Origin: Podarcis vaucheri
Lineage: Eukaryota
Length of the DNA stretch: 64,000 bases
Assembly: GCA_965113315.1 (NCBI GenBank)
Contig: OZ220363.1
Strand: one strand, 5' to 3'
This document shows, in pieces, positions 9,101 through 50,500 of this stretch. A program made the position numbers and the translations under genes. The notes beneath the pieces were generated by a model. It ran no database searches and was not told the DNA's origin. It saw only the letters and a program-made list of their open reading frames with translations. Every line of letters begins with the position of its first letter. Positions within the stretch are counted from its first letter, which is position 1.

Positions 9101-12100
9101 TTTATTTTTAGCTCGCCCAAGTGCACCAAGAGAACTACAAATTGGAGAGATAACTAGGAGCTCAGTCCAATTAAATTGGGAAGCTCCTGAAGATGATGGA
9201 GGAAGCCCATTGACTGGCTATCTTATTGAAAAGCGTGAAGTGAGCCGCAAAACATGGGTCAAGGTACGCAGTTTCTTTAAAAAACCAAAACACCTATATT
9301 TCTAATATGTATTGCTGAAGATGGTATGAAATATTCTGGTGCTTGCTATGGGGGGGAAAAGTTCTGTAATTACTTGGAACCTCTCTTGTTTTTAGGTGAT
9401 CGACAACGTCCTTGACCAAGAGTTCACTGTACCAGATCTGGTTCAAGGAAAAGAATATTTGTTCAGGGTCTCAGCATGTAACAAATGTGGACCAGGAGAG
9501 CCTGCTTACATTGATGAGCCTGTCAACATGTCAGCACCTGCTAGTGAGTTTTCTTAATTAACTATTCCTATTGATTTTGTATATCTGCATTTTACATAGT
9601 AACTTGTGCTATGCAACATAAGTATTGAAAGAAAGCAAGGAGCAGAGTTTGAATCAATAAGGGTTTGGTATGACTTACCTGTTGTATTAGAAAAACTGAG
9701 GCTTGAATCCAAAGATGCATAATTGGAACTATGTGCAAAAAAAATTCCACACACCCCCCCTTCTGCACTGCAGCCCTCAGTACCCACTGAAGAGCTGCTA
9801 CTCAGTATTAAAATAAAAGGTAAAGGGACCCCTGACCATTAGGTCCAGTCGTGACTGTCTCTGGGGTTGTGGCGCTCATCTTGCTTTATTGGCCGAGGGA
9901 GCCGTCGTACAGCTTCTGGGTCATGTGGCCAGCATGACTAAACCACTTCTGGCGAACCAGAGCAGTGCACAGAAATGCCGTTTACCTTCCTGTTGAAGCG
10001 GTACCTATTTATCTACTTGCACTTTGACGTGCTTTTGAACTGCTAGGTTGGCAAGAGCAGGGACCGAGCAACGGGAGCTCACCCCGTCGCGGGGATTCGA
10101 ACCACCAACCTTCTGAACGGCAAGTCCTAGGCTCTGTGGTTTAACCCACAATGCCACCTGCGTCCCTTGCTTAGTATTAGTGGACCCTCAATTGACAGAA
10201 AGCAGGGAGCTACCTTGCACAAATGAGTCTTTCCTGTTGTGCAGGGTACTTGTTGCATACCAACCAATGTGAGAAGAGCACCCCAGAGACAGTAAAGAAT
10301 TAAAAAAACTAAGACACACTATAAGGCACACACTATATGCAAGACAATTATACATGTTCTTTCCTCCCCACCTTGCAGCGGTGCCTGATCCACCAGAGAA
10401 TGTGAAATGGAGGGATCCAACATCTAAGTCCATTTTCCTCACATGGGATCCACCTAAGTACGATGGCGGTTCTCGTATCAAAGGCTACCTGGTTGAAAAA
10501 TGCCAGCGTGGCACTGACAAATGGGAGCCCTGTGGTGAGCCAGTCATTGAGACAAAGTAAGAGCTTGCAGTATGAAGAAAAATGTTTTACAAAATTGGAT
10601 GGTTACATTTAAACATGCAGTGCGCTGAACTTGTTTTCTGATTAACAGAATGGAAGTAACAAAACTTAAGGAAGGAGAATGGTATGCTTATCGCGTGAAG
10701 GCTCTGAACAGGCAAGGGGCAAGTAAACCAAGCAAGCCAACAGATGAAATCCAGGCTATGGATGCAATGGGTAATTTTTGATTTCCCACTCATACTTAAT
10801 CTATACTCTTGAAAACACTGTGAATGTGTTTCTGCTGTTAACGCTTCTGTGCACAGTTGCGTGTTCTTTTTTAACAATATGTCGATTCTTCTCTCAAATC
10901 AGAGGCCCCTGAGATTTTCCTAGATGTGAAACTGCTTGCTGGAATCACTGTCAAAGCTGGAACTAAGATAGAGCTGCCGGCAAGGGTAAATGGAAAGCCC
11001 GAGCCACGGATTAGCTGGACAAAAGCTGAACAGACCCTGAAACCCGATAAAAGAATAACCATTGAATCCAAACCTAACCATTCCACAGTCATAATAACAG
11101 AGAGCAAGAGAAGTGATAGCGGCACCTATATTATTGAAGCCGTAAATGCCAGCGGTCGGGCAACAGCTACAGTTGAAGTTAATGTCCTAGGTATGTTTTG
11201 TTTCCATAGAAATAGCTTTCAATGTTTTCCTAACAAAATATTTGAATAGAAGAGGTTCAAACTACTGTTATGCTTCCACAGATAAGCCTGGCCCACCAGC
11301 TGCATTTGATATCTCCGACATTACAAACGTATCTTGTGCTTTGACTTGGAATCCTCCTAGAGACGACGGCGGCTCCAGAATCACGAACTACGTTCTGGAA
11401 CAAAGAGCTGCAGACAGCGAAGTGTGGCACAAACTATCATCCACTATCAAAGAAACAAAATTCAAAGTAACAAACCTAACACCACTTAAGGAGTACATCT
11501 TCAGAGTCAGCGCAGAAAACATGTACGGAGTTGGAGAACCAGCTCAGTCCGTTCCTATCGTTGCTAAATATCCATTTGGTAAGTCTATTCGCTTGACAGA
11601 AAGGGCTGCTTGTTACAAGATGGCTGCCAAGGGAGCCTGCTAGAAACTATAATGTGGTAGCCACTCCCCATGGCATGGCATTGATAGGTACCACTTCTCC
11701 ATGTGGGTCAGTCCCCACCATAATGTTTGTCTCCACACTATCATTGGTGACATGGAGATAAGCCTGTGGGTAAGGGTCAGTATTTATGGCAAGCTGGTAC
11801 ACATAAACTGCTTGTCATGTGGAACCGGCAGCAGCAACAAAGAGACAGTTTCAAGCAGCCTCTACATGGCAACTGTACGTTTCCGAGCACAATTCAAAGT
11901 GTTGGTGCTGACCTTTAAAGCCTTAAACGGCCTCGGTCCAGTATACCTGAAGGAGCATCTCCACCCCCATCATTCTAACCGGACACTGAGGTCCAGCACC
12001 AAGGGCCTTCTGGCGGTTCCCTCACTGCGAGAAGCCAAGTTACAGGGAACCAGGCAGAGAGCCTTCTCGGTAGTGGCGCCCACCCTGTGGAACGCCCTCC

Positions 12101-14533
12101 CACCAGATGTCAAAGAGAACAACAACTACCAGACTTTTAGAAGACATCTGAAGGCAGCCCCGTTTAGGGAAGCTTTTAGTGTTTGATGTATTGCAGTATT
12201 TTAATATTTTTTTGGAAGCCGCCCAGAGTGGCTGGGGAAGCCCAGCCAGAAGGGCGGGGTATAAATAATAAATTATTATTATTAATTTGATGAAATGGCA
12301 TTTATTGCTACAGGTGCTTCCTATTATATTTGCACACAAGGAATTGCAAGTATGTCAATGTTCCCCTTTCTACTTCTTTGTACAGATCCGCCAGGTCCTC
12401 CGACACGAGTTCAGCCTGTTGAGATCACTAAAGATTCTGTAACCTTGACTTGGGTAGAACCAGATGAAGATGGTGGCAGCCCTATCACTGGTTATTGGGT
12501 TGAACGGTTGGACCCTGATCAAGATAAATGGGTCCGTTGCAATAAAATCCCAGTTAAAGATACGACATTCAAGTAAGATCATTATATGTTTCGTTTTAAA
12601 AAATATATAGCTAGGTAACTGAGAAGATTGCTATTTGTTTTTAGGTAAACAGCTGACTTTTATATACTCTTGAACTTGACTCCTTGTCATGCATTTGAAT
12701 AAAATATTAACTGGTGCTCTGTAATAGCATCGAATAATTGTATTGCTATCTATACTTTGGGTCTACAATAACCATTGAAAATATCCTTACCTAAATCATG
12801 TTCATAACCATCCACCAGTGCCACTGAATGGGACAACTATACTATGGGTGTTATCAGTAGCACCAATTTCTGCTATGGAAACAGTAGTGGGATTGTGACT
12901 TCTGATGTGATTCTACATCACTGCAGCTGCTCATAAGATTTAGCGCTGATATCAGAACTTCTTAGAGATGAATATAGTTTTCTGCTTTTTGAACTCCCAG
13001 TACAGTCGTACCTCGGAAGTCAAACGGAATCCATTCCGGAAGTCTGTTCAACTTCCCAAACTTTCGGAAACCAACGTGCAGCTTCTGATTGGCTTCAGGA
13101 AGCTCCTGCAGCCAATTGGAAGCCACGGAAGCCCTGTCAGACGTTCGGGTTCCAAAAAATGTCCGCAAACCGGAACACTCACTTCCGGGTTTGCGGCGTT
13201 TGGGACCCAAAACATCCGAGTACTAAGGCATTCAAGATCCAAGGTACAACTGTAATATGAATTTCTAATACAAGCTAAGGATATTTATTACACCCAAGCA
13301 TTATTCATCCTTAGAGTTTTAAGTAGTACCAATATATATCATCTACTAATGAATAGTACAGAAATGCAGATTATATTACATCTGACCAGTGTCTGAGACT
13401 TTCTAGTGATACAGTAATAGGAAGGTCCTTCCTCCATGTACACAGGGAGTCTCTGGTTTGGGGTGATAGTATATATTTGCTCTGAACAGTTCCAAGGTAT
13501 TGATTTTTTTAATGCACGAGGTACACTTTAATATTTAATTATAGTGTTAACTAGTAATAAGTATTACAAATTTTACATTTGGAGCATTATCATCATTACT
13601 ATTAGGGTTAAAGGTCTCACGTTCCATAAGAAGTACAAGTTCCGTGTCGTGGCAGAGAATCTTGCTGGGCCAGGAAAGCCAAGCAGAGCAACAGAGCCAG
13701 TCTTAGTGAAGGATCCTATTGGTATGAAAGCATTTTTCTTAGATGAATTTTATAACTTACTCCAAGTCATAATGCTGGGTTTTCTAAACCAAGTTATCAA
13801 TTCATGTCTAGATCCCCCATGGCCACCCGGCAAGCCAATTGTCAAAGACGTTGCCAAGACCTCGTGTTTCTTGAACTGGACGAAGCCAGAACACGACGGC
13901 GGTGCCAAGATTGAATCGTATGTCATTGAATTGTTAAAGACTGGCACAGACGAGTGGGTGAGAGTGGCTGAAGGCATCCCCACACCAGAACACTTCCTCA
14001 AAGGGCTTATGGAGAAACAAGAATATTCCTTCCGAGTCAGAGCTGTGAACAAAGCTGGAGAGAGTGAGCCTAGCGAGCCCAGCGATCCCGTGCTATGCAA
14101 GGAGAGACTGAGTAAGTTGGCCATTGCATTCTGCAGGAGAGCTTCTCCTGAGAGCCAGTGTGGTGTAGTGGTTAAGAGCGGTAGTCTCGTAATCTGGGGA
14201 ACCGGGTTCGCGTCTCCGCTCCTCCACATGCAGCTATTGGGAGGCCTTGGGCTAGTCACACTTCTCTGAAGTTTCTCAGCCCCACTCAACTCACAGAGTG
14301 TTTGTTGTGGGGGAGGAAGGGAAAGGAGAATGTTAGCTGCTTTGAGACTCCTTCGGGTAGTGATAAAGCGGGACATCAAATCCAAACTCTTCTTATTCTT
14401 CAAGTCCCAAAAGTATCAGAAGCCTGCTCCACAGTAACGTGGAGTGGGGCTTTCAGCGGGGCTGCCACTGTCTATACTTGCAAAAGACAATTGAGTATAT
14501 TTTCGTTTCATCCTCAGTTATTCTTTGTATTGT

Positions 14534-14577
<44 letters not shown>

Positions 14578-17500
14578 TTATTTATACCCTGTCCATCTGG
14601 CTAGGTTCCCCAGCCGCTCTGGGTGGCTCCCAACAGAATATTAAAAACATGATAAAACATCAAATATTAAAAAACCTCCCTAAAAGGGCTGCCTACAGAT
14701 GTCTTCTAAAAGTCAGATAGTTGTTTATTTCCTTGACATCTGAAGGGAGGGCGTTCCACAGGGCAGGCGCCGCTACCAAGAATGGCCTCTGCCTGGTTCC
14801 CTGTAACCTCACTTCTTGCAGTGAGGGAACCGCCAGAAGGCCCTCGGCACTGGACCTCAGTGTCCAGGCTGAATGATGGGGGTGGAGATGCTCCTTCAGG
14901 TATACTGTTTTTAGCTGCTTTTGTGATGTGATTGTAAATTGATATGTGACACATGTAAAAGATGATACATCAATTAATACATCATCACTAATTCATTAGC
15001 ACTATGGTTTGTGTTAAGGGGGCAATGGAAACATTAAAACATATTCAAATTAATAATATTTTGCTTTAATATTGTTACAGATCCTCCTTCACCACCTCGA
15101 TGGCTTGAGGTCATTAATATCACTAAAAACACTGCAGACCTTAAATGGACAGTACCAGAACGCGACGGAGGTTCTCCTATTACAAATTACATCGTTGAAA
15201 AGAGAGACGTACGACGGAAAGGCTGGCAGACGGTTGATACTACGGTTAAGGACACCAAATATACAGTGACACCACTAACAGAAGGCTCTCTGTATGTGTT
15301 CCGTGTGGCTGCAGAAAATGCAGTGGGGCAGAGTGACTACTGTGAAATTGAGGACTCTGTTCTTGCAAAGGACACCTTCAGTAAGTTTTCAAGTGCACAC
15401 ACTCAGAATTCAGCTTCAACAAACTATGTCATCGTTTTTAAATTTCTGTTTTCCTAATTATCAATATTATTTAATTTAGCTACCCCTGGAGCACCATATG
15501 CACTTACACCAGTCGAAGTGACAAAGAGACATGTCGACCTAAAATGGGAACCGCCTAAGAATGATGGTGGCAGACCAATTCTACGGTAAAAGAGAATTGT
15601 TTTTATATTTATTTTTTTTGTAAACCACTTAGAGGTTCTGTTTACAATCAAGCAGCATATACATTTTTAGTTAGATAGAAAGAAAGATAGAAAGATAGAT
15701 AGATACAGACAGAATATATTGGGAAAGAGTATAAAATCTGGGGCAGGGAGAGATGATTAATAGAGAAAATTTATTTTTAAAGGTTCCAAAGTTTATTGTG
15801 TTCATTATACACATTTATTATCTATTAGATGAGCAATGTTTCAAATCTAAATGAACGATTCGTTCTTGATTAAATATTTCTACTTGGCCTGATCTTTTAT
15901 TCCCCTTCCTTCCCTCTCCCTCCCCGTTTTATGAAGATTACCCGCTCTGGATCCTGCAGCTAATTCTCCCCTGGTCTCCACACTGGCCCAAATAATTTAG
16001 CCAGCTAGCCCTGATGATCATCTAATGTTTATTGGATGGATTTCCCCCCTAAATTGATTTTTGAATTCTGAATTTATTGATATTCACGTTTTATACTGTA
16101 TTTTATGCTGTTTTTTGTTGCATCAATGAAGTGTTTTAGATTTGTTGTTAGCCACCCTGAGCCCAGTTTTCTGAACTGGGAAGGGCGGGGTATAAATAAA
16201 AAAATATTATTGTTGTTGTTGTTGTTGTTGTTTGAATTGTACAGATTCATGCACCTTATAAACATCTGTTCTTCACACAGATATGTTATTGAAAAGAAAG
16301 AGAAGCTTGGCACGCGCTGGGTGAAAGCTGGCAGAACATCAGGCCCTGACTGCAATTTCAGAGTGACGGATGTGATAGAAGGTACAGAGGTGCAGTTCCA
16401 GGTTCGTGCTGAAAATGAAGCCGGCTGTGGTCACCCTAGCGAACCAACTGACATCTTGGCAATTGAAGATCCAACAAGTGAGTTACGAACATTGGAAATT
16501 ATAATCAATGAAATATGTGTTGTGCCAAATAGAACAGCAGAAAATAACATTACTTATGTATTCCTGCAGGCCCTCCTTCACCTCCTCTGGACTTACACGT
16601 GACAGACGCAGGAAGAAAACACATTTCGATTGCGTGGAAACCCCCAGAGAAAAATGGCGGCAGTCCTATAATCGGATACAATATAGAACTCTGTGAAGCA
16701 GGAACTGAAAAATGGATGAGAATAAATTCTCGACCAGTCAAAGATTTGAAATACAAAGCAGAAGAAGGCGTTGTCCCTGACAAGGAATATATTCTCAGGG
16801 TCAGAGCTGTCAACGCTATAGGGGCTAGTGAGCCATCAGACATATCAGAAAACGTTGTCGCCAAAGATCCAGATTGTAAGCATAGTTGTTTTCGAAACAG
16901 TCATGAAAGAAATTATAAATTGTGAAATTGCTTTGGTACACTAATTGAAATTATTTTTTCTGTGTTTGTTTGTTTTTTAAAAAAACAACAGGTAATCCAA
17001 CTGTTGATATAAAGACTACGGACCTCGTTGTGGTTGAAGGTGAAAAGTTAAGTATCCCTGTGCCCTTCAGAGCTGTTCCAACTCCAACTATTGCTTGGCA
17101 TAAGAGTGGGAAGGAATTGAAAGCCGGTGACCGAACAACAATGAAGAGCGACCACATCTCTGCCTTGCTGGAAGTAACAAATGCAGTCCATGCTGATGCT
17201 GGCGTTTACACTATTACCTTGGAGAATAAATTGGGTTCAACAACTGGTACAATCAATGTCAAAGTAATAGGTAATTTATTTTTCTTATACCGGCAATTAT
17301 GTGAATTAGACTCATAATGGTGAATGGGTGACAAGATGCTCAGCTCTTAGTGTCAAGGACTGTGCTGAGGAGGGCTGCACTGAGGAGAAAGGTTGGGAGC
17401 CTCCCCCTCCGCTTCCCCATCCCCCTCCTCTGCATCCGGATCCTGAATCTTCCTAGGAGCAGGAGGAAAGTATAGATTTGGAACAGTGGTTTGCAGAGGG

Positions 17501-26500: not shown

Positions 26501-29500
26501 TGTTCCCTACCTGCGATTGTGTTGTACCCAATCTGAAAGAGCTCAGAAAGTACAGATTCAGAGTAAAGGCTGTAAATGCTGCAGGGGAATCTGAGCCAAG
26601 TCTTTGCACTGCAGAAATACCATGCAAGGAAGTTCAAGGTAAGGATTGTTGGAAATAATTCTTTCCACTCGAACGTGTAGACATAGAAAAATCAAAGGAT
26701 TTGAAAACTGAAATGCAGGAATGGCTGTCCATTCCTTGAAACGTTAGAGTTTTCAAGAGTAAAGGAAACTTATTGGGGGGTGTTATGGGTACAAGGGAAA
26801 TCCCAACATCAATCTGATAGCAATAGAAGCTGGAGCTAGATTATTCTGCATACATTTGAGAAGGAACTCTTCTCAAAGTGTCCCTGCCATATGAGTTAAG
26901 GCAGATAGTGATCAAAGAGAGATCCTTCTCAGTGGTGGCACCAATTCATAGAATTCTCACCTCGGAAAGCCCACCTGACACCAACATTGTTATGGATTTG
27001 GGGCCAGCAAGGGTTTTGTTTTTGTTTTTTTTACTAGGGTGTTTCATGCGTTGTTCTAATTTATTATAGTTTGGTGTTATATGTTGTCATGTTTTTGTAA
27101 AGCTCTGCTAAAGGGCAGTATACATTTCAAACAAGTATATATCTTGATATCTTTGTTTATCATCAAGAGAATAATACACAACTGAGGCTTCAAGCCTACC
27201 CATTTACCCGGAAGAAAGATCCATCAATGTCAGCAAGACTTACTACTGAGTCTACTGTACATGCATAAGTTTACCCTATTAGAGAACTTATGTAGATGAC
27301 TTCTGACTATATTATTTATATGATATATTACTTGTATTTTGCAGAGGAGCCAGAAATATTTCTTGATATCGGAGCACAAGACCTACTCTCTTGCCGTACT
27401 GGTACAACAATCAGAATTCCAGCAGTTATTAAGGGACGTCCTGTTCCCAAAGTAACTTGGGAATTTGAAGGAGATGCAAAGAAAGCTGTAAAGGTCAGTG
27501 ACAAAACAAAGTAAACTGTTAAGAACTTCAAGCTAAAGCATTGTGTGTGTGTGTGTGTATTTACTATTTCTTCTTTGTTTAAAGGATGGACATAACATAC
27601 CTGAAGATGCCACGGTAAAAAATAGCTTATATTTGAATTCGCTTATTTTGCTTCTAATATTTGCATTTTTCAAGTCCTTTTTTAATTATTATTGCTAAGT
27701 AAGTTTATTTTGGTTTGTGCAGGTGGAATCAACTGATACCACATCAGTGATTACTATCCCTACATGTAACAGAGGTCATTCTGGAAAATACAGTATTACA
27801 GCAAAGAATAAAGCAGGACAGAAAACTGTAAATGTCAGGGTGAATGTCCTAGGTAAGACTAATCAATCTTAATATTGCACCGTTTCACAAATTTTTGTGA
27901 TACAAAAGTTCATATACTGTAAAACCCCATATAATGATTTTTCCAATCTGTTTTCATGATGAAATAGATGTTCCAGGGCCACCAAAAGACCTGAAAGTAA
28001 GTGACATAACAAGATGCAGCTGTAAACTTTCATGGAAAATGCCAGACAATGATGGTGGAGACAGAATCAGAAACTATATTATTGAGAAAAGAACTGTTGA
28101 AGGAAAAGCATGGACAAAAGTTAATCCCAACTGTGCTGGCACATCATTGGTTATTCCTGATCTCATAGCTGGGCAACAATACTTCTTCAGAGTACGTGCA
28201 GAAAACCGCTTTGGTGTTGGACCCCCAGCAGATACAATCCAAAGGACCACAGCGAGGGATCCAATCCGTAAGTTAAATCAAAATGGGACATTCATTCAGC
28301 CTTTGTTGGCAAAATTTAGACAAGAAAATCATAAAAAAGTAAGAAAACCTTCCATAAAACATTGGCAATCCGGGCATATTAAACACATAAAACATATGAA
28401 AGACTCAGTAGCCACCGTTAAGAAAATTAAAAAGTTTTAAATTTGACTTTTAAAATCTCAACTAAATATCCTGAAACAATCTCAGTGGTTTGGGGAGTAT
28501 CATTCCTCAGCAGATATTGGATTGCAGGTTCTCTGAAAATAAATACTTAAATACTTTAAGGGCGTAGCAAAGTGGGACATTTGTTTTTACTAATGATACT
28601 TTATTGTAGGGCAGTACTTACATTTTACTTTGCTCCTTTTTTAAAAAAAACAACACACAGATCCTCCTGACCCACCTATCAAGCTCAAAATTGGTCTTAT
28701 AACAAAGAACACGGTAAGCTTGACATGGAAACCTCCAAAGAATGACGGCGGTGCTCCCGTAACACATTATACTGTGGAGTGCCTTCGCTGGGACCGTAGT
28801 GGTGAAGGGAAGGAAGCCTGGCGACAGTGCAATAGACGGGATGTGGAAGAAACAAAGTTTACTGTTGAAGACCTTAAAGAAGGTGACGAATATGAATTCA
28901 GAGTGAAAGCAGTGAATGAAGCAGGTCCAAGCAGACCATCAGCTACTGTTGGGCCAGTCGTCGTCAAAGATCAGACATGTAAGTGCTGCAAAGCATTAGT
29001 AATTATTGCACTTCCAATATCCGCTCACTTGGGGCTCCGGGGGAGCAGTGTTTTTGTCACACAGTGCGGCCGTGGGCCAGTCCCAGGGGATCTGCCATCT
29101 TCCCACACAGCCAGGCAAAGGGATGGTCACATGGCAATGCCCTCCTCACATTGGGCTGAAAGCTACATTGAACAGGTACCCCGCTAAAGGGGTCCAGGAG
29201 GAGTGACTGTCTGAGAGCCCACATGATAGGCCAATATGCCTCTTGCAATGATGCCCTGTCGTGGCACCCGGTCCATGTTGGGGGCAACTCCCCAGCACAG
29301 CACAGGGTCATCCTCCATTGGGTCTCTTATCAGCCAGCACGTGCGTTGACTGATGATGGATACATGTCCATTGCCATAGCCAAACCTACTCATATCTGTA
29401 TTGAAGGAAGTTGTGGCCTAATTCAACCCAGTATCAATCTCTTGTGTTCATTTCCACAGTCTGCCCCGCACAGGGCTGCAGACATCATGTGTCTGCAATG

Positions 29501-32500
29501 CAAAGCATTTTGACTTCTGTATTCATAGTGGCTCAATAATTTTTGCTTGCTTTTGTTTGTAGGCCCTCCGTCTATTGAACTCAAAGAATTTATGGAGGCA
29601 GAAGAAGGGACAGATATCAAGATTGTAGCCAAAATAAAGGGCGTCCCCTTCCCGACATTGACTTGGGTCAAAGCTCATCCTAAGAAACCTGATGACAAAT
29701 TGCCAGTGCTATATGACCAACATGTCAACAAGATTGTGGATGAAAATTCCTGTACTTTGCTGATACAGCAATCTCGTAGAAAAGACACAGGCTTGTACAC
29801 TATAACTGCTGTCAATAACTTTGGAACAGATTCAAAGGAGATGAGGCTGAATGTGCTAGGTAAATATCAATGTATTTTGGCATTGGCAACCTAATTTACT
29901 GTTTGTTATATAATGTTCAAAACATGTCTCTCCTGTTATCAGTCTCTGCAGCCACAGCAGGCGCCGTAACTCTCCAATAATTTGACTTCATCCCTGAAGG
30001 CAAACTCTTCCATTTCCTCCCGAGATAGCTGGATGCCAACCACAACAATATAACACTCAACTTTGACAACAATTAATGCTTTATAAAATGTATTTTTCAG
30101 GTCGCCCTGGACCACCAGAAGGACCCATTAAATTTGAATCTATTTCCGCCGATCAGATGACAATTTCTTGGCTTCCTCCTAAAGATGATGGTGGATCTAA
30201 GATAACTAACTATGTTATTGAAAAAAGGGAAGCAAACAGAAGGACCTGGGTCCATGTTACCAATGAACCTAAAGAATGCATCTTCACAGTACCCAAACTA
30301 CTAGAAGGGCATGAATACATCTTCCGCATCATGGCACAGAATAAATATGGCGTTGGGGAACCTCTTGATAGTGAACCTGAAACTGCCAGAAATCTATTCA
30401 GTAAGCATACAGTTCTCTAAAATATCACCTGCGCTTATATTTATTGGCAAAGCAGAACATAAGTAATCTGATTAGATAGTATGAGAGCCCCAAGTTAAAA
30501 TTGTTATTTTTTTAATCTTCTGGATGGCTAAAATGTCTATAATAGTTTTTGAAGGCTTTTCGGAAATAGATCTTTTATGGCTATTTTTTCTGTTTCATCT
30601 TAAAACTATACCTGTTTTAAATGTTAAATATTGAATCTGTACTTATAACATTTTAGATTGTATTTAGCACAGTATAGACCATATCTTTGCCTTTCTTCAC
30701 CATAAAATAATAAAACGTTCAATTATCAGTGTGATCTTGTGCTCTGCTGGACACAATGAAGCACAGTGCTGTGGCAAAGGAACCCTTCATCAGCTCCGCT
30801 ATTCCAAGAAATACAAAATGCTGGCATTTGGTGCAGAGCTACTGTAAAAAGGGCTTTTCAGGGTGAAGATGCTCAGCCATGGCTCTAGCACAGGATTCTA
30901 GGACTTGACAGTTACGTATAACAAAGAAAAAGGAGGACTTTGTATAGCCCTTCCCTACTTACTTCACAAAATAAAAAAATTCCTTCCAGTAGCACCTTAA
31001 AGACCAACTAAGTTAGTTCTTGGTATGAGCTTTCGTGTGCATGCACACTTCTTCAGATAGGTATCTGAAGAAGTGTGCATGCACACGAAAGCTCATACCA
31101 AGAACTAACTTAGTTGGTCTTTAAGGTGCTACTGGAAGGATTTTTTTTATTTTGACTATGGCAGACCAACACGGCTACCTATCTATTACTTCACAAAGGT
31201 TGTCTCTGTAGGGGCTAATGAAAGACTGGGAAAGGAAACTTCAGATGAAGGCTATAGCATAAATACCATATATAAGCGGTCTATGTGGCCCCCGGAGCTT
31301 TGCTTTACTCTTGGTGTACTTTATTCCCTAGCTGTTCCTGGAATTTGTGACAAACCAACGGTCAGCAGTGTCACACATGACTCAATGACCGTCAACTGGG
31401 AGGAGCCAGAATATGATGGAGGCTCCCCTGTGACGGGTTATTGGCTGGAGCGTAAAGAGACCACTGGAAAGAGATGGACACGGGTTAACCGTGATCCTAT
31501 TAAACCTATGACATTGGGAGTTTCTTACAAAGTACCTGGCCTTATTGAAGGTTCAGATTACCAGTTCCGCGTCTATGCTATTAATGCTGCTGGTGTTGGA
31601 CCGCCAAGCATGCCGTCTGATCCAATAACTGCAAGAGACCCAATCTGTAAGTAATCAAGATCTATTTATTTATTTGGTGTGAAAGGGGGAAATATACTAA
31701 AAGATGGTATAGATGGTATATGTTTGAGAAATAATAAATACACAGTCTTGTGACAGAATGATGCAATATTTTTTTTCCCAGCTCCACCTGGTCCTCCATT
31801 TCCAAAAGTTACTGATTGGACAAAATCTTCCGTTGACCTTGAATGGACTCCTCCATTAAAAGATGGTGGTTCTAAAGTCACTGGTTACCTTGTTGAATTT
31901 AAAGAAGAAGGGAAAGAAGAATGGGAAAAGGTAGGTGAAATTCTGCCATTGAAAATTTATTTGAAACATTATGTCGATTCCATAATTGAACATACTGAGG
32001 AACATACCGAATCACTGAAAGGGCTACCAACTCATCTGTGTGGCTATAAGCAGCAAAAACCCATTGTTCCCCTTCCTCGTAGGTGGCTTTTAATGGTATC
32101 ATGAGTGAAAGATAAGGGAGGGAGGTAAGTGATGTGGTGTGGGGAGAGGCATGAAGTAAGGAGGTTCAGGAGGAAGGAATGAAAGGACTCAGGTACACAG
32201 CTGCAAATTAAACGTTTTGTGTTGTAAAGTGCAATATACAAGTGTGACACTAGATGGTGCCAGTGAGCTATGCAAAATCCAATGTATTTTTGGAAACGTT
32301 TTTTTGAAAAAGCATTTCCACAGTATCTTTAACATGTGTGTAGATTCCACCAAAGACACAAATTTTCTTTTTGTTTTCAGGCAAAAGATAAAGAAATAAG
32401 AGGGACCAAGTTTGTTTTGGCAGGATTGAAAGAAGGAGGTTTCTACAGATTTAGAGTCAGAGCAATAAATGCTGCTGGTATTGGAGAGCCTGGAGATGTC

Positions 32501-35500
32501 ACTGAAGTCATTGAAATAAAGGACAGAATAGGTATGTCTTAGGATAAAAACAGCCTCTCTTTGTTCTTGTGTGGGTAAAAGAATAGAAACTAAATATAAA
32601 ATATATTGTTTGTTTCTACAGTTGCTCCTGATCTCATGCTTGATGCTCATGTGAAGGACAGAATCGTTGTCCATGCTGGTGGAGTGATCCGCATTATAGC
32701 TTATGTCTCGGGAAAGCCACCTCCAACAATTACCTGGAACAGGGATGAGAGAGCTCTCCCAGAGGAGGCTAAAATCGAGGAAACTGCAATTAGTTCCTCT
32801 ATGGTCATAAAGAACTGCAAGAGAAGCCATCAGGGCTTATACACTCTTCTCGCTAAAAATGCCGGTGGAGAAAGAAAGAAGACTATTATTGTTGATGTGC
32901 TAGGTAAGCACTGAAAGCTGACTTGCTGATGGCTAGACTGCTGTTGAGGGCAGATGGCTGATGGATGAATGGCAGAAAGTCACACTTTTGTTGATGCATT
33001 TGCACTGGCTACCCATAGGTTACTGGATCAGGATGAAAGTTCATGTACAAAGCCCTGAACAACTTGAGTCCAAGATACCACAAGAAGTGTCTGCTCCCTT
33101 CTGTCCCATTTTGATGACTTAGATCATCTGAAGGAGGGCTGTTAGTTGTTCCCAATGTCTCAGAACCCTTAGTGTGTCATCAGTCCCATACTGCAGAAAA
33201 CTCTTCCAACAGAGAATCAGTGGACATCCTCCCCGTTAACCTTCAGACGTCTCTTGGAAGATGTTCTTATGCAGACAGGCCTATTCAGTTGTTTAATTTC
33301 CTTTATTTAGACGAGCCAGTCATTCTTGTGATTACTTTGTATTCATAGAATCATAGAGTTGGAAGAGACCACAAGGGCCATCGAGTCCAATCGAGTATTG
33401 TTTTATAGTATTTTCTTTTGTGCACTGCCTTGGTATATTATATGAGTGGGTGGGGTTATAGAAAAATATAGATATGTTTTTATAAATATGTTATTGCATC
33501 TATGTTATTATTTGGGTTCCAATTACAGAAATGCTAAATGTTCGTCTTAAAACCATTCTACTGTATTTCTTTCCTTCACAGATGTTCCAGGTCCAGTTGG
33601 CATTCCATTCCTTACTGAGAACCTAACCAACGACTCATGCAAACTTACGTGGTTTTCTCCTGAAGATGATGGTGGCTCAGCTATCACCAACTACGTAATT
33701 GAAAAACGTGAAGCAGACCACAGGGCTTGGACCCCAGTGACATATACGGTCACCAGGCAGAATGCAACAGTTCAGGGGCTGATTGAGGGCAAAGCATACT
33801 TCTTCCGAATTGCACCTGAGAATATTATTGGCATGGGCCCATTTGTGGAGACAACAAAAGAGATTTTAATCAGAGACCCAATAAGTAAGACTTTATTGTC
33901 TATTTTTTTTTCCAGTACTGATGAGGAAAATTTGCCTTGAAAAAAGTACCTAACATGGTGCATGTGTTTATTTCTAGCTGTGCCAGAAAGACCTGAGGAT
34001 CTGGAAGTCAAAGCAGTAACGAAGGATTCTGTTACACTGACCTGGAACCCACCTAAGTACAATGGTGGCTCTGATATAACCATGTATGTTTTGGAAAGCC
34101 GGCTTATTGGGAAAGAGAAATTTACCAGAATTACAAAAGAGAAAATGCTTGACAGAAAATACACAGTTGAAGATTTGAAAGAAGGTGACACTTATGAGTA
34201 TCGCGTGAGCGCTTGCAATATTGTGGGACAAGGCAAACCATCATTTGTTACGAAACCCATCACATGCAAAGATGAAATTGGTAAGTTTCCATTCTGGAGC
34301 AAACCAACCAACCAAATGTGCATTGGGTGATCTGTGAGTTTTTATAGATATCACTGAATCTTCTTTTCTTGAATAATACTTCTAGCTCCTCCACAACTTG
34401 AACTTGATATCCGAGAGAAGCTCACTGTCCGTGTAGGAGAAGCTTTCAGTCTGACTGGCCGTTACTCAGGCAAACCAGCACCAAAGATTACCTGGCTCAA
34501 AGATGAAATTTCTGTGAAAGAAGACAAACGGACAAAGATCCAGACTACGCCAGTTACTCTTTGTTTGGGGATATTGAAATCTGTCCGTGAAGATTCAGGC
34601 AAATATTGTGTCATTGTAGAAAACAGTTCGGGAACAAGAAAAGGTTTCTGTCAAGTTACTGTAGTTGGTAAGTATTGCTATAGTGCTAAAATAAGTTATT
34701 TCCACATGTGGTATGAATTAGAGCTGATCAAATGAGGGTGGGATGGCATATCACATGATAACATTTAACCTAATGCACATTGTGAAGAACTTTTCTGATA
34801 AATATATTTCTTTTACTTTTAAACAGATCGTCCTCAACCACCAGTGGGGCCAGTTATTTTTGATGAAGTTACTAAAGATCATTTTGTTATCTCCTGGAAA
34901 CCTCCCTTGGATGATGGTGGAAGTCCAATTACAAATTACATTATTGAGAAGAGAGATGCAAACAGAGACCTCTGGATGCCAGTCACGTCAGCCAATGTCA
35001 AGACAACGTGCAAAGTCCCTAAATTACTTGAGGGAAGAGATTATGTTGTCCGAATCTACGCTGAGAACTTGTATGGCATGAGTGATCCTTTAATATCTGA
35101 TGAAATGAAGGCCAAGGATCGTTTCAGTATGTAGTTTATTTGCTAATTCGTTTTACTTAAGTCTCCGCCATATATCTACTTCACTTGTATTTTCATATTA
35201 TATTTTTGTATGAAATGGATTTAAAACTTGAAAACGTTATTTCTTCAGGTGTTCCTGCTGCACCAGAGCAACCTATCATTAAAGGCGTCACCAAAAATTC
35301 TGCTTTAGTTACCTGGAAGAAGCCATATGATGGAGGAAAACCAATAACCAATTACATACTTGAAAAGAAGGAAACTATGTCTACTCGATGGGGAAGAGCC
35401 ACCAAAGATCATATTTACCCAGATACTCAGTTCAGGGTAACAGATCTTCTTGAAGGCTGTGAATATGAATTCCGAGTTTCAGCAGAAAATGAAATTGGCG

Positions 35501-38500
35501 TTGGTGATCCTAGCCCACCCTCAAAACCATTCTTCGCTAAGGATCCAATTGGTATATTATAAAACATTTTCTCATGTATTATATTTGTGATATTACTTGG
35601 TACCAATTAATCTCTTTTTCAGATTCATGATTCCAATGTAATGGGGTGTTGTTGTTTTTTCGTTTTTACAGTAAAACCAAGTCCACCAATTAATCCTGAA
35701 GCAGTGGATAAAACTAAAAGTTCAGTGCAATTGTCCTGGCAACCACCACGTCATGATGGAGGAGGCAAGATCATAGGCTATCTCATTGAGTACCAAAAGG
35801 ATGGAGATGAGGAGTGGAAAAAAGCCAACCATACAGCAGATTCTTGCCCTGAGACAAAATACAATGTCACCGGCCTCACTGAGGGTACCAAATATAGATT
35901 CAGAGTCTTTGCAGTCAATGGGGCAGGAGAATCCGAGCCAGCTAATGTTCGTGATCCAGTTGAAGTCAAGGACAGACTTGGTAAGCAGAACATGATGTTT
36001 TAATTGGTTTTAAAGGGCCAAAGTGGATATATTTTCTGAACACGAAGTCCCTTTTTTTTACAGAGGCTCCTGATTTAATCCTGGATGCTAATATGACACG
36101 AGAACAACATGTAAAAGTTGGAGATACATTGAGGCTAAGTGCTGTAATTAAAGGAATTCCATTCCCAAAAGTGACTTGGAAGAAAGAAGATAAGGAAGTT
36201 CCTACAAAGGCAGATATTGAGGTTACAGGAGTTGGCAGTAAGCTTGAAATTCGACACGCAGTCCATGAAGACGGAGGGAATTATTCCCTGACCGTGGAGA
36301 ATCCGGTTGGATCAAAGACTGTTTCAGTAAAAGTTATTGTTCTAGGTAATGAATGAAATGATGTTAACACTTCTACTGGGAGATAAAACATGACAGAGGT
36401 GAATGATAGGAACATACCTATGTACAACAGAAAAGCAGGAATGAAAAATTATATTTTTCATTATCTGTTAGCAACCTTGTTCCCCAACTTTGGAAGGGAA
36501 TTTTCTAAATGTTATGGAGCATTATCAGAATCCTTGCAGTGTTAAAACACACACATACCAAATATGGGTGGGTGCATAGTGGGTGCAAAGCCCATAGTCT
36601 TTGGAAAATATTAATTGTTCTCTGAGGTTCATAGTCACTGAAATTAATAATACTAATAATTTTATTATTTGTACTCTGCCCATCTGACTGGGTTGCCCCA
36701 GCCACAACACAAACATACATACAGCAAAGCTACTGTAAATTTGTTGAAGAAATCGGGGCGAGGGGCGTTGTACACAAACTAGTTTGATTTTACACCCTGT
36801 ACTTTGTGTCAGATTTAATTATCCAGGTTCAGATGAAAAATGTTTAGAAATTAAAAATGGTTAGAGGCTGTCCATCTTCATTTTCTACAAATAAGAAGTA
36901 TACAATCATAAGGAAAAGACTCTTTCTTGCAAATAATATACAGTGGTACCTCGGTTTACGAACTTAATCCATTCTGGAAGTCTATTCTTAAACCGAAACC
37001 GTTCTTAAACCGAGGCACGCTTTCCCTAATGAGACCTCCTGCCGCCGGTGCCCTTCCACCGTTTGGCTTCCATTCGTAGACCAAGGTAAAGTTTGCAAAC
37101 TGGGACACTACTTCCGGTCTTGCGGAGTTCTTAAACCGAATCGTTCGTAAACAGGACTGTTCTTAAACCGAGGTACCACTGTATTTAACACAATATTTTT
37201 ATACATAGACTACATCGAACATTTATTTCCATTTTTTTTCCAGATAAGCCTGGGCCTCCCAGGAATCTACAGGTCAGTGAAGTGAGAAGAGATTCTTGCT
37301 ATCTGACTTGGAAGGAACCTGAGGACAATGGTGGCTCTGTCATTACGAATTACATTGTGGAAAGGAAAGATGTTGCTGCTGCTCAGTGGCTACCAATATC
37401 ATCATCTTCTAAGAAACACAGTCTGTTGGCTAAATACCTCATGGAAGGCACTCAGTATCTCTTCCGTGTTGCTGCTGAGAACCAGTATGGAAGAGGTCCT
37501 TACGTTGAAACCCACAAGCCGATTAAGGCTATAGATCCACTTCGTAAGCACAGTTCACTTACTATTTTGTGTTCTTTTTTTTAAAAAAAAAAGAAAAACC
37601 TTTGTCGACTGTGTTGATCTATACAATGTGTATCAGCATTTGGAAATGTTTGTGTATAAAAATAGAAATGCTAATCCTGTTTTCATCTCGTTTTAAAAGA
37701 TCCTCCTGGTCCACCAAAGAACTTGCACCATGTAGATGTTGACAGGACACAAGTGTCTCTTGTTTGGAATTGGCCTGATCGGGATGGTGGCGCTGAAATA
37801 ACTGGATTTTTGGTGGAGTACCAAGAAGAAGGGAAAGAAGACTGGACAAAATTCAAAACAGTCCCTGTGCCAGAATGTGTTGTTACTGGTCTACAACAAG
37901 GGAAGATTTACAAATTCCGCGTAAAAGCCCAAAATATTGTGGGTCTTAGTCTTCCAGATACAACCATACCAATAGAGTGCCAAGAAAAAATAGGTAACCA
38001 CTGAATTTATATGACTGTTCACAGATTTCATATTCACTGCTGAAATGTAACTCTTGTAATGGGGAAATACCTATAATATAATCTGCGTGTTGTTGTTGTT
38101 TTATTTCAGTGCCACCATCAGTTGATCTAGATGTGAAATTAATAGAAGGCCTTGTTGTTAAAGCTGGCAGCACAGTGCGGTTCCCTGCAATCATGAGAGG
38201 CGTACCTGTTCCCACTGCAAAATGGGTCACTGATAATGTTGAAATCAAATCAGAAGGCAATTACAAGATTGATACTGATAATTACTCTACAGTTCTCACT
38301 ATTCAAAGCTGCACAAGAAAAGACACTGGAGAATATCTGCTCACAGTATCCAATATAGCTGGAAGCAGAACTGTTCCTGTTCATCTAACAGTTTTGGATG
38401 TTCCTGGTCCTCCAACTGGCCCAATTGATATTCTGGAAGTCACTCCCGATCATATGGTTATTGCTTGGCGACCTCCTAAAGATGATGGTGGAAGCGCTGT

Positions 38501-41500: not shown

Positions 41501-44500
41501 TTTGCCAACAGGCCATTAAGTTATTTGCTATCTTAAAAATTGCTTTCAAAATATAAACTTTTAATGTTCCTTTTCAGAACCTCCTGAAATTGACTTGGAC
41601 GCAAGCCTGAGAAAGTTAGTCATAGTCAGAGCAGGATGCCCCATAAGACTTTTTGCCATTATTCGAGGGAGACCAGCACCTAAAGTTACCTGGAGGAAGG
41701 TGGGAATTGACAATGTGATCAGAAGAGGCCAGGTTGACCTGGTTGACACAATGGCCTTCTGCGTCATCCCCGATTCTACACGGGATGATTCAGGCAAATA
41801 CACTTTGACAGTTGTTAACCCTGCTGGAGAAAAGGCAGTCTTTGTGAATGTCCGTGTCCTTGGTGAGTTATGTCAATAATTTTAACATCTATTAATTTTT
41901 GTTCTGTGATTTATGAATGTATTATTCATTGCAATTTCTTTTCCATGAGACTCTGCCCACTTACTTTGAATAAAGGTAAAGGTAAAGGTACCCCTGCCCG
42001 TACGGGCCAGTCTTGACAGACTCTAGGGTTGTGCGCCCATCTCACTCAAGAGGCCGGGGGCCAGCGCTGTCCGGAGACACTTCCGGGTCACGTGGCCAGC
42101 GTGACGAAGCTGCTCTGGCGATCCAGAGCCACACACGGAAACGCCGTTTACCTTCCCGCTAGTAAGCGGTCCCTATTTATCTACTTGCACCCGAGAGTGC
42201 TTTCGAACTGCTAGGTTGGCAGGCGCTGGGACCGAACAACGGGAGCGCACCCCGCTGCGGGGATTCGAACCGCCGACCTTTCGATCGGCAAGCCCTAGGC
42301 GCTGAGGCTTTTACCCACAGCGCCACCCGCATCCCTACTTACTTTGAATAATTGTGGCCTAATATTGGTTGTTTTTTGTTTCCTTTCCTCCAATAGATAC
42401 TCCTGGACCTGTAGCAGAGCTCAGTGTCAAGGATGTCACAAAAACATCCTGTCAGGTTTCATGGACTCCACCTGAAAATGACGGCGGTAGTCCTGTAACA
42501 CATTACATCGTGGAAAAACGGGAGGCTGAGAGAAAGACCTGGGCAAAACTTACCGATGATGTAAAGAAGACTAGTTTCAAGGTTTCTAATCTTATGCCAG
42601 GAACTGAGTATTTCTTCAGAGTCATTGCTGTCAATGAATATGGCCCTGGTGTTCCAAGGGACACGCCCAAACCAATCCTGGCATCAGATCCGCTAAGTAA
42701 GTATTTATTGATGTAGCTGTTGTATTATTTCATTCAGGAAATTCAGATTTTGTATGATAGTTCAGATAGTCAAAATCAGTTGTCACTGCGCATAATAATA
42801 AATAATAATAATGGATAAATAAGTTCATGAGATAACTTCTCCTCCCTGCACTTATTTAATTGACTTGTTGTTTGGCAGATCTTCTATTTGCTATATTTCA
42901 AAGAATATAACCTGTCCACAAATACATTGCCAGCTGAGTCTTCTTCCAGGATGTGGAGGCAATGTGTGGATCACAAAAAACAATCAAACCAGAATAGAAG
43001 TACCGTATTGGCCTGAATATAAGCCTCACTTTTTCTCCCAAATTCTAACTGTGAAAAGTTAAAGTGCGGCTTAAATTCGCAACCTTACAAAAATTGGCTT
43101 TTACGATATTGTTGCTAAAACAGATATACGGTAAAAAGAAACGGGTGTGAGTGCCTGTGGAATTTTAAGGGAGCAGTTTATATTCTGGTATTCTTTTTCT
43201 CTTTCCCCCTTAAATTTTAAAGGTGCGGCTTATAGTTGGGTGCGGCTTATATTCGGGCCAATACGGTACTACAAAGGTCAAAGAAACCACTGGTCTCATG
43301 ACTTATGTATTCAAATGAAAAAATAAAATAGTACAATATATTCTGTGTTTCCCCGCCCCCAATAAATCATGAGAAGATGTAATGATCTTAGAAATTATGT
43401 AAACTAAGCATTTGCCTGCCTGTTTTATTTTTAAGGTGAACCTGATCCTCCAAGGAAACTTGAAGTGACTGAAATAACAAAGAACAGTGCTACTTTAGGG
43501 TGGTTGCCACCATTGCGTGACGGTGGTTCCAAAATTGATGGCTACATCATTGCATATCAAGAAGAGGGTCATGCTGAGGATCACTGGACACAGTACTCCG
43601 TTGTCAAAGATCTTCATATTGTTGTTGCTGGCCTAAAGGAAGGAAAGAAATACAAATTTAGAGTGGCTGCAAGGAATGCTGTAGGAGTAAGCCAGCCAAA
43701 ACAAACTGAAGGCATCTATGAAGTTAAAGAGCAACTGAGTAAGTACCTAACTATGACCACTTGTACAACTGAAATATAATTCAATTATTTTGATTTTGTA
43801 TCTAAATTTTGGATGTCACCTCTTAAAGATATTTAAAATTAGGTCCTGTCACGTAATCTGATGTCTTTAGTGACATTCCTTTTTTAATGGGTTTATTGGT
43901 TTTTCCCCAAAACAGCAACATACAAACAAGACATTCAAAAGGGTCTACAAAAAAACTTCACAAATAGGCTCATTGGCTCTGCGACCTTCTATAGCAATGT
44001 ATTAGGTGTTAATTCTGGCCTGAAGAGTACTGAATGTGGGTCCCAGGCCCAGCAGGCAGTTTCTTAATAGTTCGCTTCATTTATGCACAAGTTTGCCTTA
44101 AAATTTTGTGCATCTCCCCATTATAAGATGTTGTGAAGCTTTCTGCATCTGAAGAATAGGACAGCTATACAGTTAATTAAATAAGATAGCACACTGCTCA
44201 GACCTTAGAATAAACCTACAAAAGAAGCTAGGAGGAAATGAATCAGGGATAGTATATTTCAAGGATATTAGGGGGAATACAATTTATCAGGGCTAGTTCC
44301 TTGGTGACTATTTGAAAACAAAGTTTTTGGTTGGTTTGGGGACGTAATATCAGACCTTTTGCCTTACTTCTGCAGAATATAGATCAGAAGTGGCTAGTCT
44401 GGGGCCTAGCCACACCTCCAGACACTGTTGGACTGCAACTCTCATTTGCTGCAGCCAGCATGGCCAGTGGCTATGGGTGTTGGAAGTTGTTGTCCAACAA

Positions 44501-47500: not shown

Positions 47501-50500
47501 GGAACAGAATATGAGTATAGGGTAACTGCACTGAATAAAGCTGGACCCGGCAAACCTAGTGGAGTATCTAAAGCAGTATATGCGCGTGATCCTCAGTGTA
47601 AGTTGAACACAAGCACATTTTTCGGTCTTCTGTGACTTTGTGAGTGTGTGCAAATGGGTTTGCCAGATCATAATTGTGTAATTTCTTGGTGCTTTCATTC
47701 TCAGATCCTCCTGGCCCACCAGCGTTCCCAAAAGTGATTGACACCACCCGTAGCTCTATAACCCTGTCTTGGACCAAACCAGCATATGATGGTGGAAGCC
47801 CCATTATTGGCTACCTTGTTGAAGTAAAACGAGCAGATACAGATAACTGGGTCCGGTGCAATTTGCCAAGGAATTTGCCAGATACCCGTTACGTTGTGAC
47901 TGGACTCACGGAGAACACAGAATACCAGTTCCGCATTTATGCTGTCAATAAGGTTGGATATAGTGACCCAAGTGATGTGCCAGACAAGCACATGGCCAAG
48001 GACATTTTAAGTAAGTTGTCCTGAAAAGAAATTGACTTGTTTACTTTCGTGCATATTGTGGGTATCGGTATAGAAGGTTTAGTGGAGGGCCTATGAGAAA
48101 CTAGGGGCTCTGTGCTGAACTGTTTCATGAACTCACATATGTCTAGTCTTTAAACCACTATTCCCTCAGTTGTTAAAAACCACACAATCTAGCCACATGC
48201 TCCTCATTCTGCTCTGTTTCTAAAATTTTCTTGAGAATGGAATCCTCAGCTTTTCTTTCCATTTGCACTATCATTGTTGTACATTTTCCTCTACCCAGAA
48301 ACACACTTGCTCTTTCTCTGTCTTGTGTGAAAGAAAACAATGTCCTCCTTCTGAATAATAATGCAAAGGTATCATGTTTTGAGTGCAAGGCAAGCACACT
48401 TTCCCAATGGGAAGCTCCTAGATAGTTGTAGAAAAGTAGGGACCGCAACTTGACTGAAAGTATAGAGTGGATTCCTCTCAAAACAAAGAGAGAGAGAAGA
48501 ATATGAGAAACCACTGGTGTCTGGCCGGGTGGCATGAAAACTGGCAATTAGGGAAGGAAGGTTAGAGTAACATTTAGAGAGATTTCCTCTCTTTTACTCA
48601 TCCACTTGCTTTTTCTAAAAAAGAAAAAAGAAAGCCTGAGCTTTATTCCCCCTAACATCATTGCTTTGTATTTTCTCTCTCTTTCCTTTCCATTCCCATC
48701 ATGCCTCAGCCACTGACACTGATTTTATTATATTTTAAATTGTTATCATCAGCAATTTATTTGACATCTACTTTTATTTACAATGCAGTTCCACCTGAGG
48801 GAGAGCTTGATGCTGAATTGAGGAAAGTTCTGGTATTACGTGCTGGAGTCACAATGAGGATTTATGTGCCCGTGAGAGGCCGTCCACCTCCCAAGATTTC
48901 TTGGTCTAAAGTGGATGCCAACATAAGAGACAGGCAAGGACTAGATATCAAATCAACTGACTTTGACACTTTCCTGCGCTGTGAAAATGTAAATAAATAC
49001 GATTCTGGAAAATATGTCCTGAGTCTGGAGAACGTCTGTGGCAAAAAAGCATACACAATGGTTGTAAAAGTACTTGGTAAGTGCTACGTGATTGCCTATT
49101 ATTGTCTTAACTATCCATACACGTTTTATTTTATATATTTTAGTCATTAACTGAAATGGTTTATTTGCATCTGTACAGATACTCCTGGGCCACCTATTAA
49201 TCTGATTGTAAAAGAAGCATCTAAAGATTCTGCCTTTATTTCATGGGAACCTCCTATAATTGATGGCGGGAGTCCAGTGAAGAACTATGTGGTTGAAAAA
49301 CGTGATGCAGAGAGAAAGTCGTGGTCTACAGTAGCCACAGAGTGTCCGAAAACAAGTTTCAGGATCTCTAACCTGGAGGAAGGCAAATCTTACTTCTTCA
49401 GGGTTTTTGCTGAAAATGAATATGGCATTGGCGACCCCTGTGAAACTCGTGATGCAGTTAAAGCTTCTGGTGAGAATATTCACATGATTACCCTATCAGG
49501 CTATTGTTAAAAGGCTCTTTAGCTATTTAGCTAGAGAAGGAAGCAGTTTCCGCCTGAAAATCCCTATTCTAACTTTATATTAGAGATTTGTTCATCATTA
49601 TATTCTTTTCTCCCTGCTAGAAACACCTGGACCTGTTGTGGACTTAAAGGCTTTGGCTGTGACAAAGTCATCCTGCAATGTATCGTGGAAAAAGCCCATT
49701 AGCGATGGTGGAAGCCGCATTAATGCATATATCGTTGAACTTATGACTGGTGAAAATCAGTGGCAGGAAGTTATGAGGTCAAAGAATCTCCAGTATTCAA
49801 CAAGAGACTTAACAGAAGGCAAAGAATATACCTTCAGAGTGAGAGCACAAAATGAAGCTGGGTATGGAACACCTAATGAAATTACAGTGCTGGCAAGGGA
49901 CGATATAGGTGAGTAGATTCATACATTTTCTCGTTCACAGAGCACACTGCATATGTCAGTATAGTGAACAATAGAACTACCCCATGAGATAGTCAAGCCA
50001 GTCTAATAAAGCAAAAATAGCAGAGGTGTCACAAAACCTTTCGTTCTTTTACAGAACAGAAGTTACTGAAGTTCACTGCACTGAGCATACAATAATAACA
50101 ATATTATAATAATAATTTATTATTTATACCCCGCCCATCTGGCTGGGTCCCCCCCAGCCACTCTGGGCAGCTTCCAACAAAACACTAAAATACAATAACC
50201 TATTAAACATTAAAAGCTTCCCTAAACAGGGCTGCCTTTAGATGTCTTCTAAAAGTTTGGTAGTTATTTTTGTCTTTGACATCTGGTGGGAGGGCGTTCC
50301 ACAGGGCGGGCGCCACTACCGAGAAGGCCCTCTGCCTGGTTCCCTGTAACTTGGCTTCTCGCAACAAGGGAACCTCCAGAAGGCCCTCGGCGCTGGACCT
50401 CAGTGTCCGGGCTGAACGATGGAGGTGGAGACACTCCTTCAGGTATACTGGACCGAGGCCATTTAGGGCTTTAAAGGTCAGCACCAACACTTTGAATTGT

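Follow-up and report, generated by a model that had tools for sequence, protein, structure and literature searches.

A palindromic, hammerhead-bearing stump of a putative Penelope-like element in a titin intron of Podarcis vaucheri: a likely young insertion with a likely silent ribozyme

An intron of the titin gene in the lizard Podarcis vaucheri (NCBI GenBank assembly GCA_965113315.1, contig OZ220363.1) contains a short palindromic insert. With a probability of roughly three in four, we read it as the end, including the hammerhead, of a reptile Penelope-like element (PLE) present in many copies: an insertion that is likely young, that enzymes of the element itself, its endonuclease and reverse transcriptase (RT), likely produced, and whose ribozyme is likely a silent passenger. 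Judged from its anatomy and a turtle homolog, the insert is very probably a PLE stump. The window analyzed, meaning the whole stretch of 64,000 nt, covers a portion of the titin gene on the plus strand, and the host intron occupies 30401-31331 (931 nt; 704 nt without the insert), the insert being separated by 570 nt from its 5' splice site and by 134 nt from its 3' splice site. The following exon (31332-31646), the one exon that was compared, encodes a titin Fn3 domain whose best PDB matches were all titin, and this bears out the host gene named in the preliminary description of this DNA.

Self-comparison revealed two inverted arms of 93 nt each, 30967-31059 on the minus strand and 31062-31154 on the plus strand, which are identical at 92 of 93 positions (the mismatch is 30980 vs. 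31141), are separated by the spacer GG (31060-31061) and show no further extension beyond 93 nt. The left arm corresponds to an inverted pseudo-LTR end without its tail. The right arm, which was also recovered by contig alignment, is a direct copy of the same end and continues for 31 nt that have no partner in the left arm, forming an AC-rich tail at 31155-31185 of the type regarded as a PLE signature (Arkhipova et al. 2013, PMC3846280; Craig 2021, PMC8557442; Frangieh et al. 2024, PMC11167929). Identical 12-mers flank the insert at 30959-30970 and 31186-31197, and because the start of the left arm (30967-30970) coincides with the last 4 nt of the left 12-mer, a microhomology with element positions 31151-31154, the newly inserted sequence amounts to 215 nt. 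The arms, single mismatch, spacer and 12-nt target-site duplication (TSD) had all been described previously and were reproduced here; the unpaired tail is an addition to that description. At the head-to-head junction, 31061 is element sequence and 31060 is not. No second copy of the element was found within the 64-kb window, and the insert contains no ORF. In addition, the junction segment 31055-31063 is exactly complementary (9/9) to the tail end at 31176-31184 and could be the trace of a short template jump. Loop II of the hammerhead contains an ATG that opens a frame (31079-31184) reaching the tail and interrupted by one stop at 31106-31108, where the family varies in about half of its signal; this frame echoes PLE ORFs that begin inside the hammerhead. 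An intron-like GT...AG stretch of 39 nt is also present at 31126-31164, and no RNA joint for it was listed in the contig and read alignments.

A minimal-hammerhead descriptor gave two matches in the 64 kb, both of them in the insert, compared with a mean of 0.01 in 100 Markov controls. The plus-strand match (31060-31099), which lies in titin sense and is backed by the descriptor, folding, the consensus and the turtle motif, is a minimal type I hammerhead in which stem I is formed by 31060-31064 and 31095-31099 (5 bp in this copy), the core occupies 31065-31071 and is followed by an unpaired A at 31072, stem II (5 bp) is formed by 31073-31077 and 31082-31086, G12-A15.1 fall at 31087-31090, and stem III is reduced to a palindromic 4 nt without a loop (31090-31093), with the predicted cut after C31094. 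The consensus elements CUGANGA-H, a stem II closed by G-C, GAAA, a palindromic 15.2-16.2 and NUH are all present. The minus-strand copy (31024-31059), which is antisense to titin, has a stem I of 3 bp and a predicted cut after 31027. The preliminary description had proposed a minimal hammerhead cleaving after 31094 and a minus-strand copy with a 3-bp stem I; the descriptor agrees on both, as does the turtle homolog on the identity of the former. The 5-bp stem I that it also reported is indeed present in this copy, but its fifth pair is a chance product of the junction: family copies show T rather than G at the place of 31060, so that G31060 was made by the junction and the family stem I has 4 pairs. 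A covariance-model search, a check named in the same description, found no hammerhead in Rfam: there were 0 matches at gathering level in the 64 kb, the 32 sub-threshold matches on 30900-31260 (E up to 10) were generic hairpins, and the right arm alone gave one chance match. With respect to covariation, the lizard and turtle motifs differ by one two-sided change in stem I and one in stem II (by eye, n=2 sequences), and within the lizard family no compensatory stem changes were seen at ≥3%, the main changes being CpG decay at 31086/31087. No family member turned up when viral, metagenome and prokaryote collections were searched by pattern; degenerate hammerhead patterns gave 0 matches in viral contigs and 0 in prokaryote genomes, and two metagenome-contig matches were rejected by eye as microbial-looking DNA with no stem I and no flank similarity.

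The layout of the insert is that of known PLE insertions, which have been described as inverted, 5'-truncated copies with a tail of 30-40 nt, including a 'characteristic 31-bp extension' and head-to-head palindromes (Arkhipova et al. 2013; Craig 2021). Like those insertions, the lizard insert is an inverted, 5'-truncated copy placed head to head with its partner, has a 31-nt tail on one arm and thus at one end, carries a hammerhead in the pseudo-LTR, and is flanked by a short TSD of 12 nt at an AT-rich target, which was confirmed by the empty site described below. Unlike the PLEs of those accounts, it has no ORF and no second direct pseudo-LTR, the whole insert being 215 nt, and its TSD is longer than the 8-10 bp of the rotifer cases (PMC3846280). 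The ribozyme finds its counterpart among the minimal hammerheads of metazoan PLEs, above all in the motif of the turtle Chrysemys picta (Cervera and de la Pena 2014, PMC4209133, Fig. S3), with which it shares the core and the layout: an extra unpaired base before stem II, G10.1-C11.1, a 4-bp stem I, a 5-bp stem II, a palindromic 15.2-16.2 without loop 3, and U-rich 5' and AU-rich 3' flanks that appear near-homologous by eye. The two differ in stem I (GCAU/AUGC in the turtle vs. GUAU/AUAC in the lizard) and in stem II (GUGGG/CCCAC vs. GUGUG/CACAC). The lizard motif is absent from the 56 rows of that figure, where the turtle row is not marked as ORF-linked, and its 4-nt loop II turns stem II plus loop (31073-31086) into a perfect 14-nt palindrome. 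The tail, the head-to-head inversion, the TSD and the turtle homolog together uphold the Penelope-like origin suggested earlier.

The insert can also be compared with the anole element Poseidon of Anolis carolinensis (PAc), whose protein cuts and extends both target strands and is predicted to be a dimer; its RT has two RNA start sites, which delimit the tail and are located 111-118 nt past an ORF start coinciding with stem II (Frangieh et al. 2024). Here the right end of the insert is 113 nt past the point where stem II begins, and the likeness to PAc extends to the hammerhead at the border of pseudo-LTR and ORF, the AC-rich end about 113 nt past stem II, the tail and the lack of RNA ends at the cut. 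The cut site differs, falling 22 nt after the start of stem II in the lizard and 26 nt after the start codon in PAc. Animal non-LTR retrozymes (Li, Clavereau and Pollet 2026, 10.64898/2026.07.22.740005) are likewise non-coding, hammerhead-bearing and PLE-derived, but they form head-to-tail tandem arrays, whereas this insert is a single head-to-head pair that allows no dimer in cis. With one such pair and no other copy in the window, membership in that class was rejected.

To place the insert within its family, three DNA runs (X1, X8 and X11) and one RNA run (X23), four of the 24 listed runs, were compared over the 286 nt at 31040-31325. X1 may be the source sample, X8 has the same species label and is another sample, and X11 is another species. 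The family is very large, with thousands of copies: the 286-nt stretch drew 9801, 9606 and 6933 contigs in the three DNA runs, nearly all of them on 31060-31190, and family homology ended near 31181-31190. The ratio of summed contig depth to flank depth was 76,000-88,000, or about 2,500-2,800 after division by 31, neither of which is a copy number. Most copies extend upstream of 31061 as pyrimidine-rich, non-palindromic sequence ending in T, and their loose ends fall before 31061; those at 31154 are blurred by length variants of a T-run. The family also has a small inverted repeat, with arms of 5 bp enclosing a loop of 5 nt, formed by the loose-end consensus before 31061 and 31065-31069.

In X1, which contains 0.98 of the sampled words of 29500-33500, a contig running from element position 31161 into the right flank matches with zero differences and is unbroken at 31186. 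In X8, a 3536-nt contig matches from exactly 31186, with 3 differences in 140 nt, and carries other sequence before that point; in X11, a 1271-nt contig likewise matches from exactly 31186 and carries other sequence before it. We infer that the sequence preceding 31186 in both contigs is the left flank, that is, the empty site. Because the empty-site contigs of both other DNA runs begin at 31186, the duplication is fixed at 12 nt and the insertion is real. The CpG at 31086/31087, which is decayed in 10-18% of the family signal, is intact in this copy. The identical duplications, the near-identical arms and the intact CpG point to a recent, lineage-specific event, and the insertion is therefore likely to be young and confined to its lineage. 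Since it is missing from both of the other genomes, there is no sign of selection on it.

How the mirror half was acquired can be explained in two main ways, and the mechanism of inverted PLE copies has been described as unsolved (Craig 2021). In the first, the element protein would cleave the two strands of an AT-rich site at a stagger of 12 nt, and each cut end would prime reverse transcription of the element's RNA, with one start at the tail end (31185) and the other 31 nt further in (31154), where a 4-nt match would help; both copies would stop at the 5' edge of the hammerhead and be joined head to head with one extra base. We regard this two-ended priming as an even bet, and favor it over fold-back on account of the two-strand extension and two start sites of PAc and of the arm mismatch, which falls at a family-variable site. 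At that site both letters are common in the family (A in 71-74%), as two different templates would give. A literature search on twin-priming found no PLE paper.

In the second, a single cDNA would have halted at the hammerhead's 5' edge, folded back and served as its own template up to the 4-nt match to the left target end, an explanation to which we give somewhat less than even odds. Arkhipova et al. (2013) interpreted head-to-head palindromes as self-priming, and the small inverted repeat of the family lies at just this spot, but the center of this copy is not the loop of that repeat. The complementarity of the center to the tail end is also in its favor, as a short template jump could supply the extra base. 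The arms themselves can be read both ways. Their 92/93 identity extends to four other family-variable sites at which they agree (31094, 31102, 31106 and 31121), and the mismatch sits at the edge of an A/T-run, where slippage could recreate it; however, this single mismatch reproduces a common family variant, and the unpaired part is exactly tail-sized (31 nt), matching the two RT start sites of the anole element (PMC11167929). Fold-back at other centers was observed as well: centers at 31058 (4 letters fewer, or 4 more) occurred in all three DNA runs, in a stretch that detects only centers near 31060, and sequence across the center made up 0.58%, 0.10% and 0.32% of the summed family depth, values that are lower bounds because copies with different spacers may escape alignment and hairpins are hard to amplify.

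The preliminary description had further claimed that the arms sequester the motif in a long hairpin as the transcript is made, and ViennaRNA folding predicts as much. The whole-insert hairpin reached -165.7 kcal/mol, compared with -105.3 kcal/mol when the hammerhead stems were forced; stems I and II had a probability of 0.0 both in the complete insert and in shorter transcripts terminating at 31086 or 31100; on removal of the left arm it rose to 0.98 for stem II and 0.76-0.88 for stem I. In titin pre-mRNA, the arms would therefore be expected to zip into a 92-pair hairpin that would abolish the hammerhead fold, would likely be edited by ADAR and would be discarded with the intron. With a single sense motif in the insert, no dimer in cis is possible, and in calculations that ignore core contacts a dimer through intermolecular stem III (-17.7 kcal/mol) is no more stable than two monomers (2 × -9.3), the predicted pairing of two copies being a duplex through stem II (-37.2). 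In the work of Cervera and de la Pena (2014), minimal hammerheads did not cleave as single units and cleaved at a low level as dimers, hammerhead dimer cleavage was also reported by Lunse et al. 2017 (via the review PMC6765202), and the anole motif was described as cleaving only with the protein of its element, as dispensable for insertion in vitro, and as having no RNA-seq read ending at its cut site (PMC11167929). In light of these findings, the motif is very probably silent at this locus.

RNA from the family was available in X23, which stems from a related species lacking the insertion; about 12% of the run was covered, giving 1370 reads, none of them from the titin flank, with DNA and RNA coming from different individuals and strandedness deduced from the pattern. 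The family was read in both orientations at similar depth. The sense depth so assigned climbed gradually over the motif, from 324 to 457, without a step at 31094/31095, and no pile of read ends was found anywhere in the stretch at a threshold of a fifth of the depth. RNA with the natural upstream sequence dominated (380 loose-end reads vs. a depth of <5 across the center).

These data bear on the claim that the hairpin is a built-in off switch, in which the left arm would spare titin pre-mRNA from cleavage and palindromic copies would for that reason be favored in sense introns. The loss of the hammerhead stems in the full-insert fold and their return without the left arm are what such a switch would show; the core is intact, including the CpG that is decayed elsewhere in the family, and Xenopus retrozymes are reported to be depleted from introns. 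However, lone motifs of this class are inactive or protein-dependent (PMC4209133, PMC11167929, PMC6765202), so that there is little to switch off; fold-back at this center accounts for 0.1-0.6% of family depth, itself a lower bound; the RNA is mostly of the natural-upstream kind, comes from both strands alike and shows no ends piled at 31094/31095; and the insertion is absent from both other genomes. As a function, the off switch is consequently improbable, and the burial of the ribozyme is best read as a by-product of the mode of PLE insertion, not as a device.

A further concern is that the left arm could be an assembly or library fold-back artefact on a plain insertion of 124 nt. Hairpins are a known source of chimeric reads. 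Among the contigs displayed, none spanned the exact center or the left junction of this copy, and the left arm therefore rests on the assembly. Nevertheless, that arm ends cleanly in a TSD which the empty site confirms, the arms differ by a variant common in the family, the asymmetry between them is tail-sized, other centers occur in all three DNA runs, and X1, possibly the source sample, contains nearly all sampled words of the region; together these make an artefact very unlikely. A MITE or microRNA hairpin is the least credible explanation of all: the insert is palindromic, TSD-flanked and non-coding and has sub-threshold Rfam microRNA matches, but its arms stop short of one end by the length of the tail, most family copies are non-palindromic upstream, all scores are far below gathering, as for any long hairpin, and the hammerhead consensus is intact.

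The X23 reads were in addition used to look at A-to-I editing, for which 37 rows within the element were listed (three flank rows were dropped, two more were not shown, and the X8 columns were unused). Among these, 21 stood at <1% in the DNA of both X1 and X11, and 17 of the 21 were A>G or T>C, the remaining four being G>A (2), T>A and A>C. All 17 leaned to the strand expected for A-to-I editing, 16 of them with p<0.001. At the level of the family, this strand-specific pattern in the RNA of a related species sustains the earlier suggestion that the hairpin is an ADAR substrate. In the catalytic core, G replaced A in 7.2, 10.1 and 14.4% of the sense reads at 31088, 31089 and 31090 (A13, A14 and A15.1, respectively), compared with <1% in DNA. 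Changes of A to G or I at these three positions are expected to impair hammerhead cleavage, and the result suggests that editing of core adenosines is one reason for the missing cleavage ends in the RNA data; a literature search found no support concerning inosine at position 15.1. Massive A-to-I editing of lizard Penelope repeats has already been published (Porath et al. 2017, PMC5625713), and our observations resemble the edited transcripts of those repeats and of palindromic frog Harbinger repeats, where self-folding palindromes are ADAR targets. That study, in the part of its text considered here, makes no mention of a hammerhead, whereas the editing here is placed on A13, A14 and A15.1. 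No paper on editing of PLE hammerheads was found by title or start of abstract, with most subscription literature outside the scope of the search, and within the literature searched the placing of editing on the catalytic adenosines goes slightly beyond what is in print.

The remainder of the window holds several other repeats. Part of a downstream titin exon (50586-50632) recurs as an exact copy of 47 nt at 49522-49568, within the short intron 49471-49620 and about 1.06 kb upstream of the source sequence; the copy looks like a templated insertion. The titin introns contain SINE-like repeat families, squamate in appearance, at 11874-12282, 14548-14907 and 50091-50515, at 2207-2449 and 14151-14392, and at 3854-4176, 9816-10167 and 41974-42336; some of these form inverted pairs 2.3-38 kb apart that are 83-94% alike, a further possible source of double-stranded RNA. 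Three small MITE-like elements with terminal inverted repeats of 26-31 nt lie at 298-525, 36938-37184 and 42999-43270, and 55093-63978 shows self-similarity with a period of about 3.25 kb (63-67%), as is expected from titin super-repeats in long exons.

Taken alone, the locus is of little consequence: a lineage-specific intronic insertion of a very abundant repeat that shows no sign of function. It is useful as a clean specimen, since its 215 nt combine a proven empty site with arms that are offset by the length of a tail and differ at a family-variable site, and it indicates which genome-wide count would tell two-ended priming apart from fold-back. Within the literature searched, drawing on arm differences as a test of how inversions originate goes slightly beyond what is in print. 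A broader and rather doubtful proposal is that palindromic stumps are the two-ended, two-template products of a dimeric PLE enzyme, with a separate RNA behind each arm, starts that are a tail length apart and a stop at the 5' edge of the hammerhead, and that ADAR editing of A13, A14 and A15.1 brakes thousands of ribozymes genome-wide. If this were true, the thousands of young copies in lizard genomes, some of them lineage-specific, would let the inversion step of PLEs be read from arm-to-arm differences.
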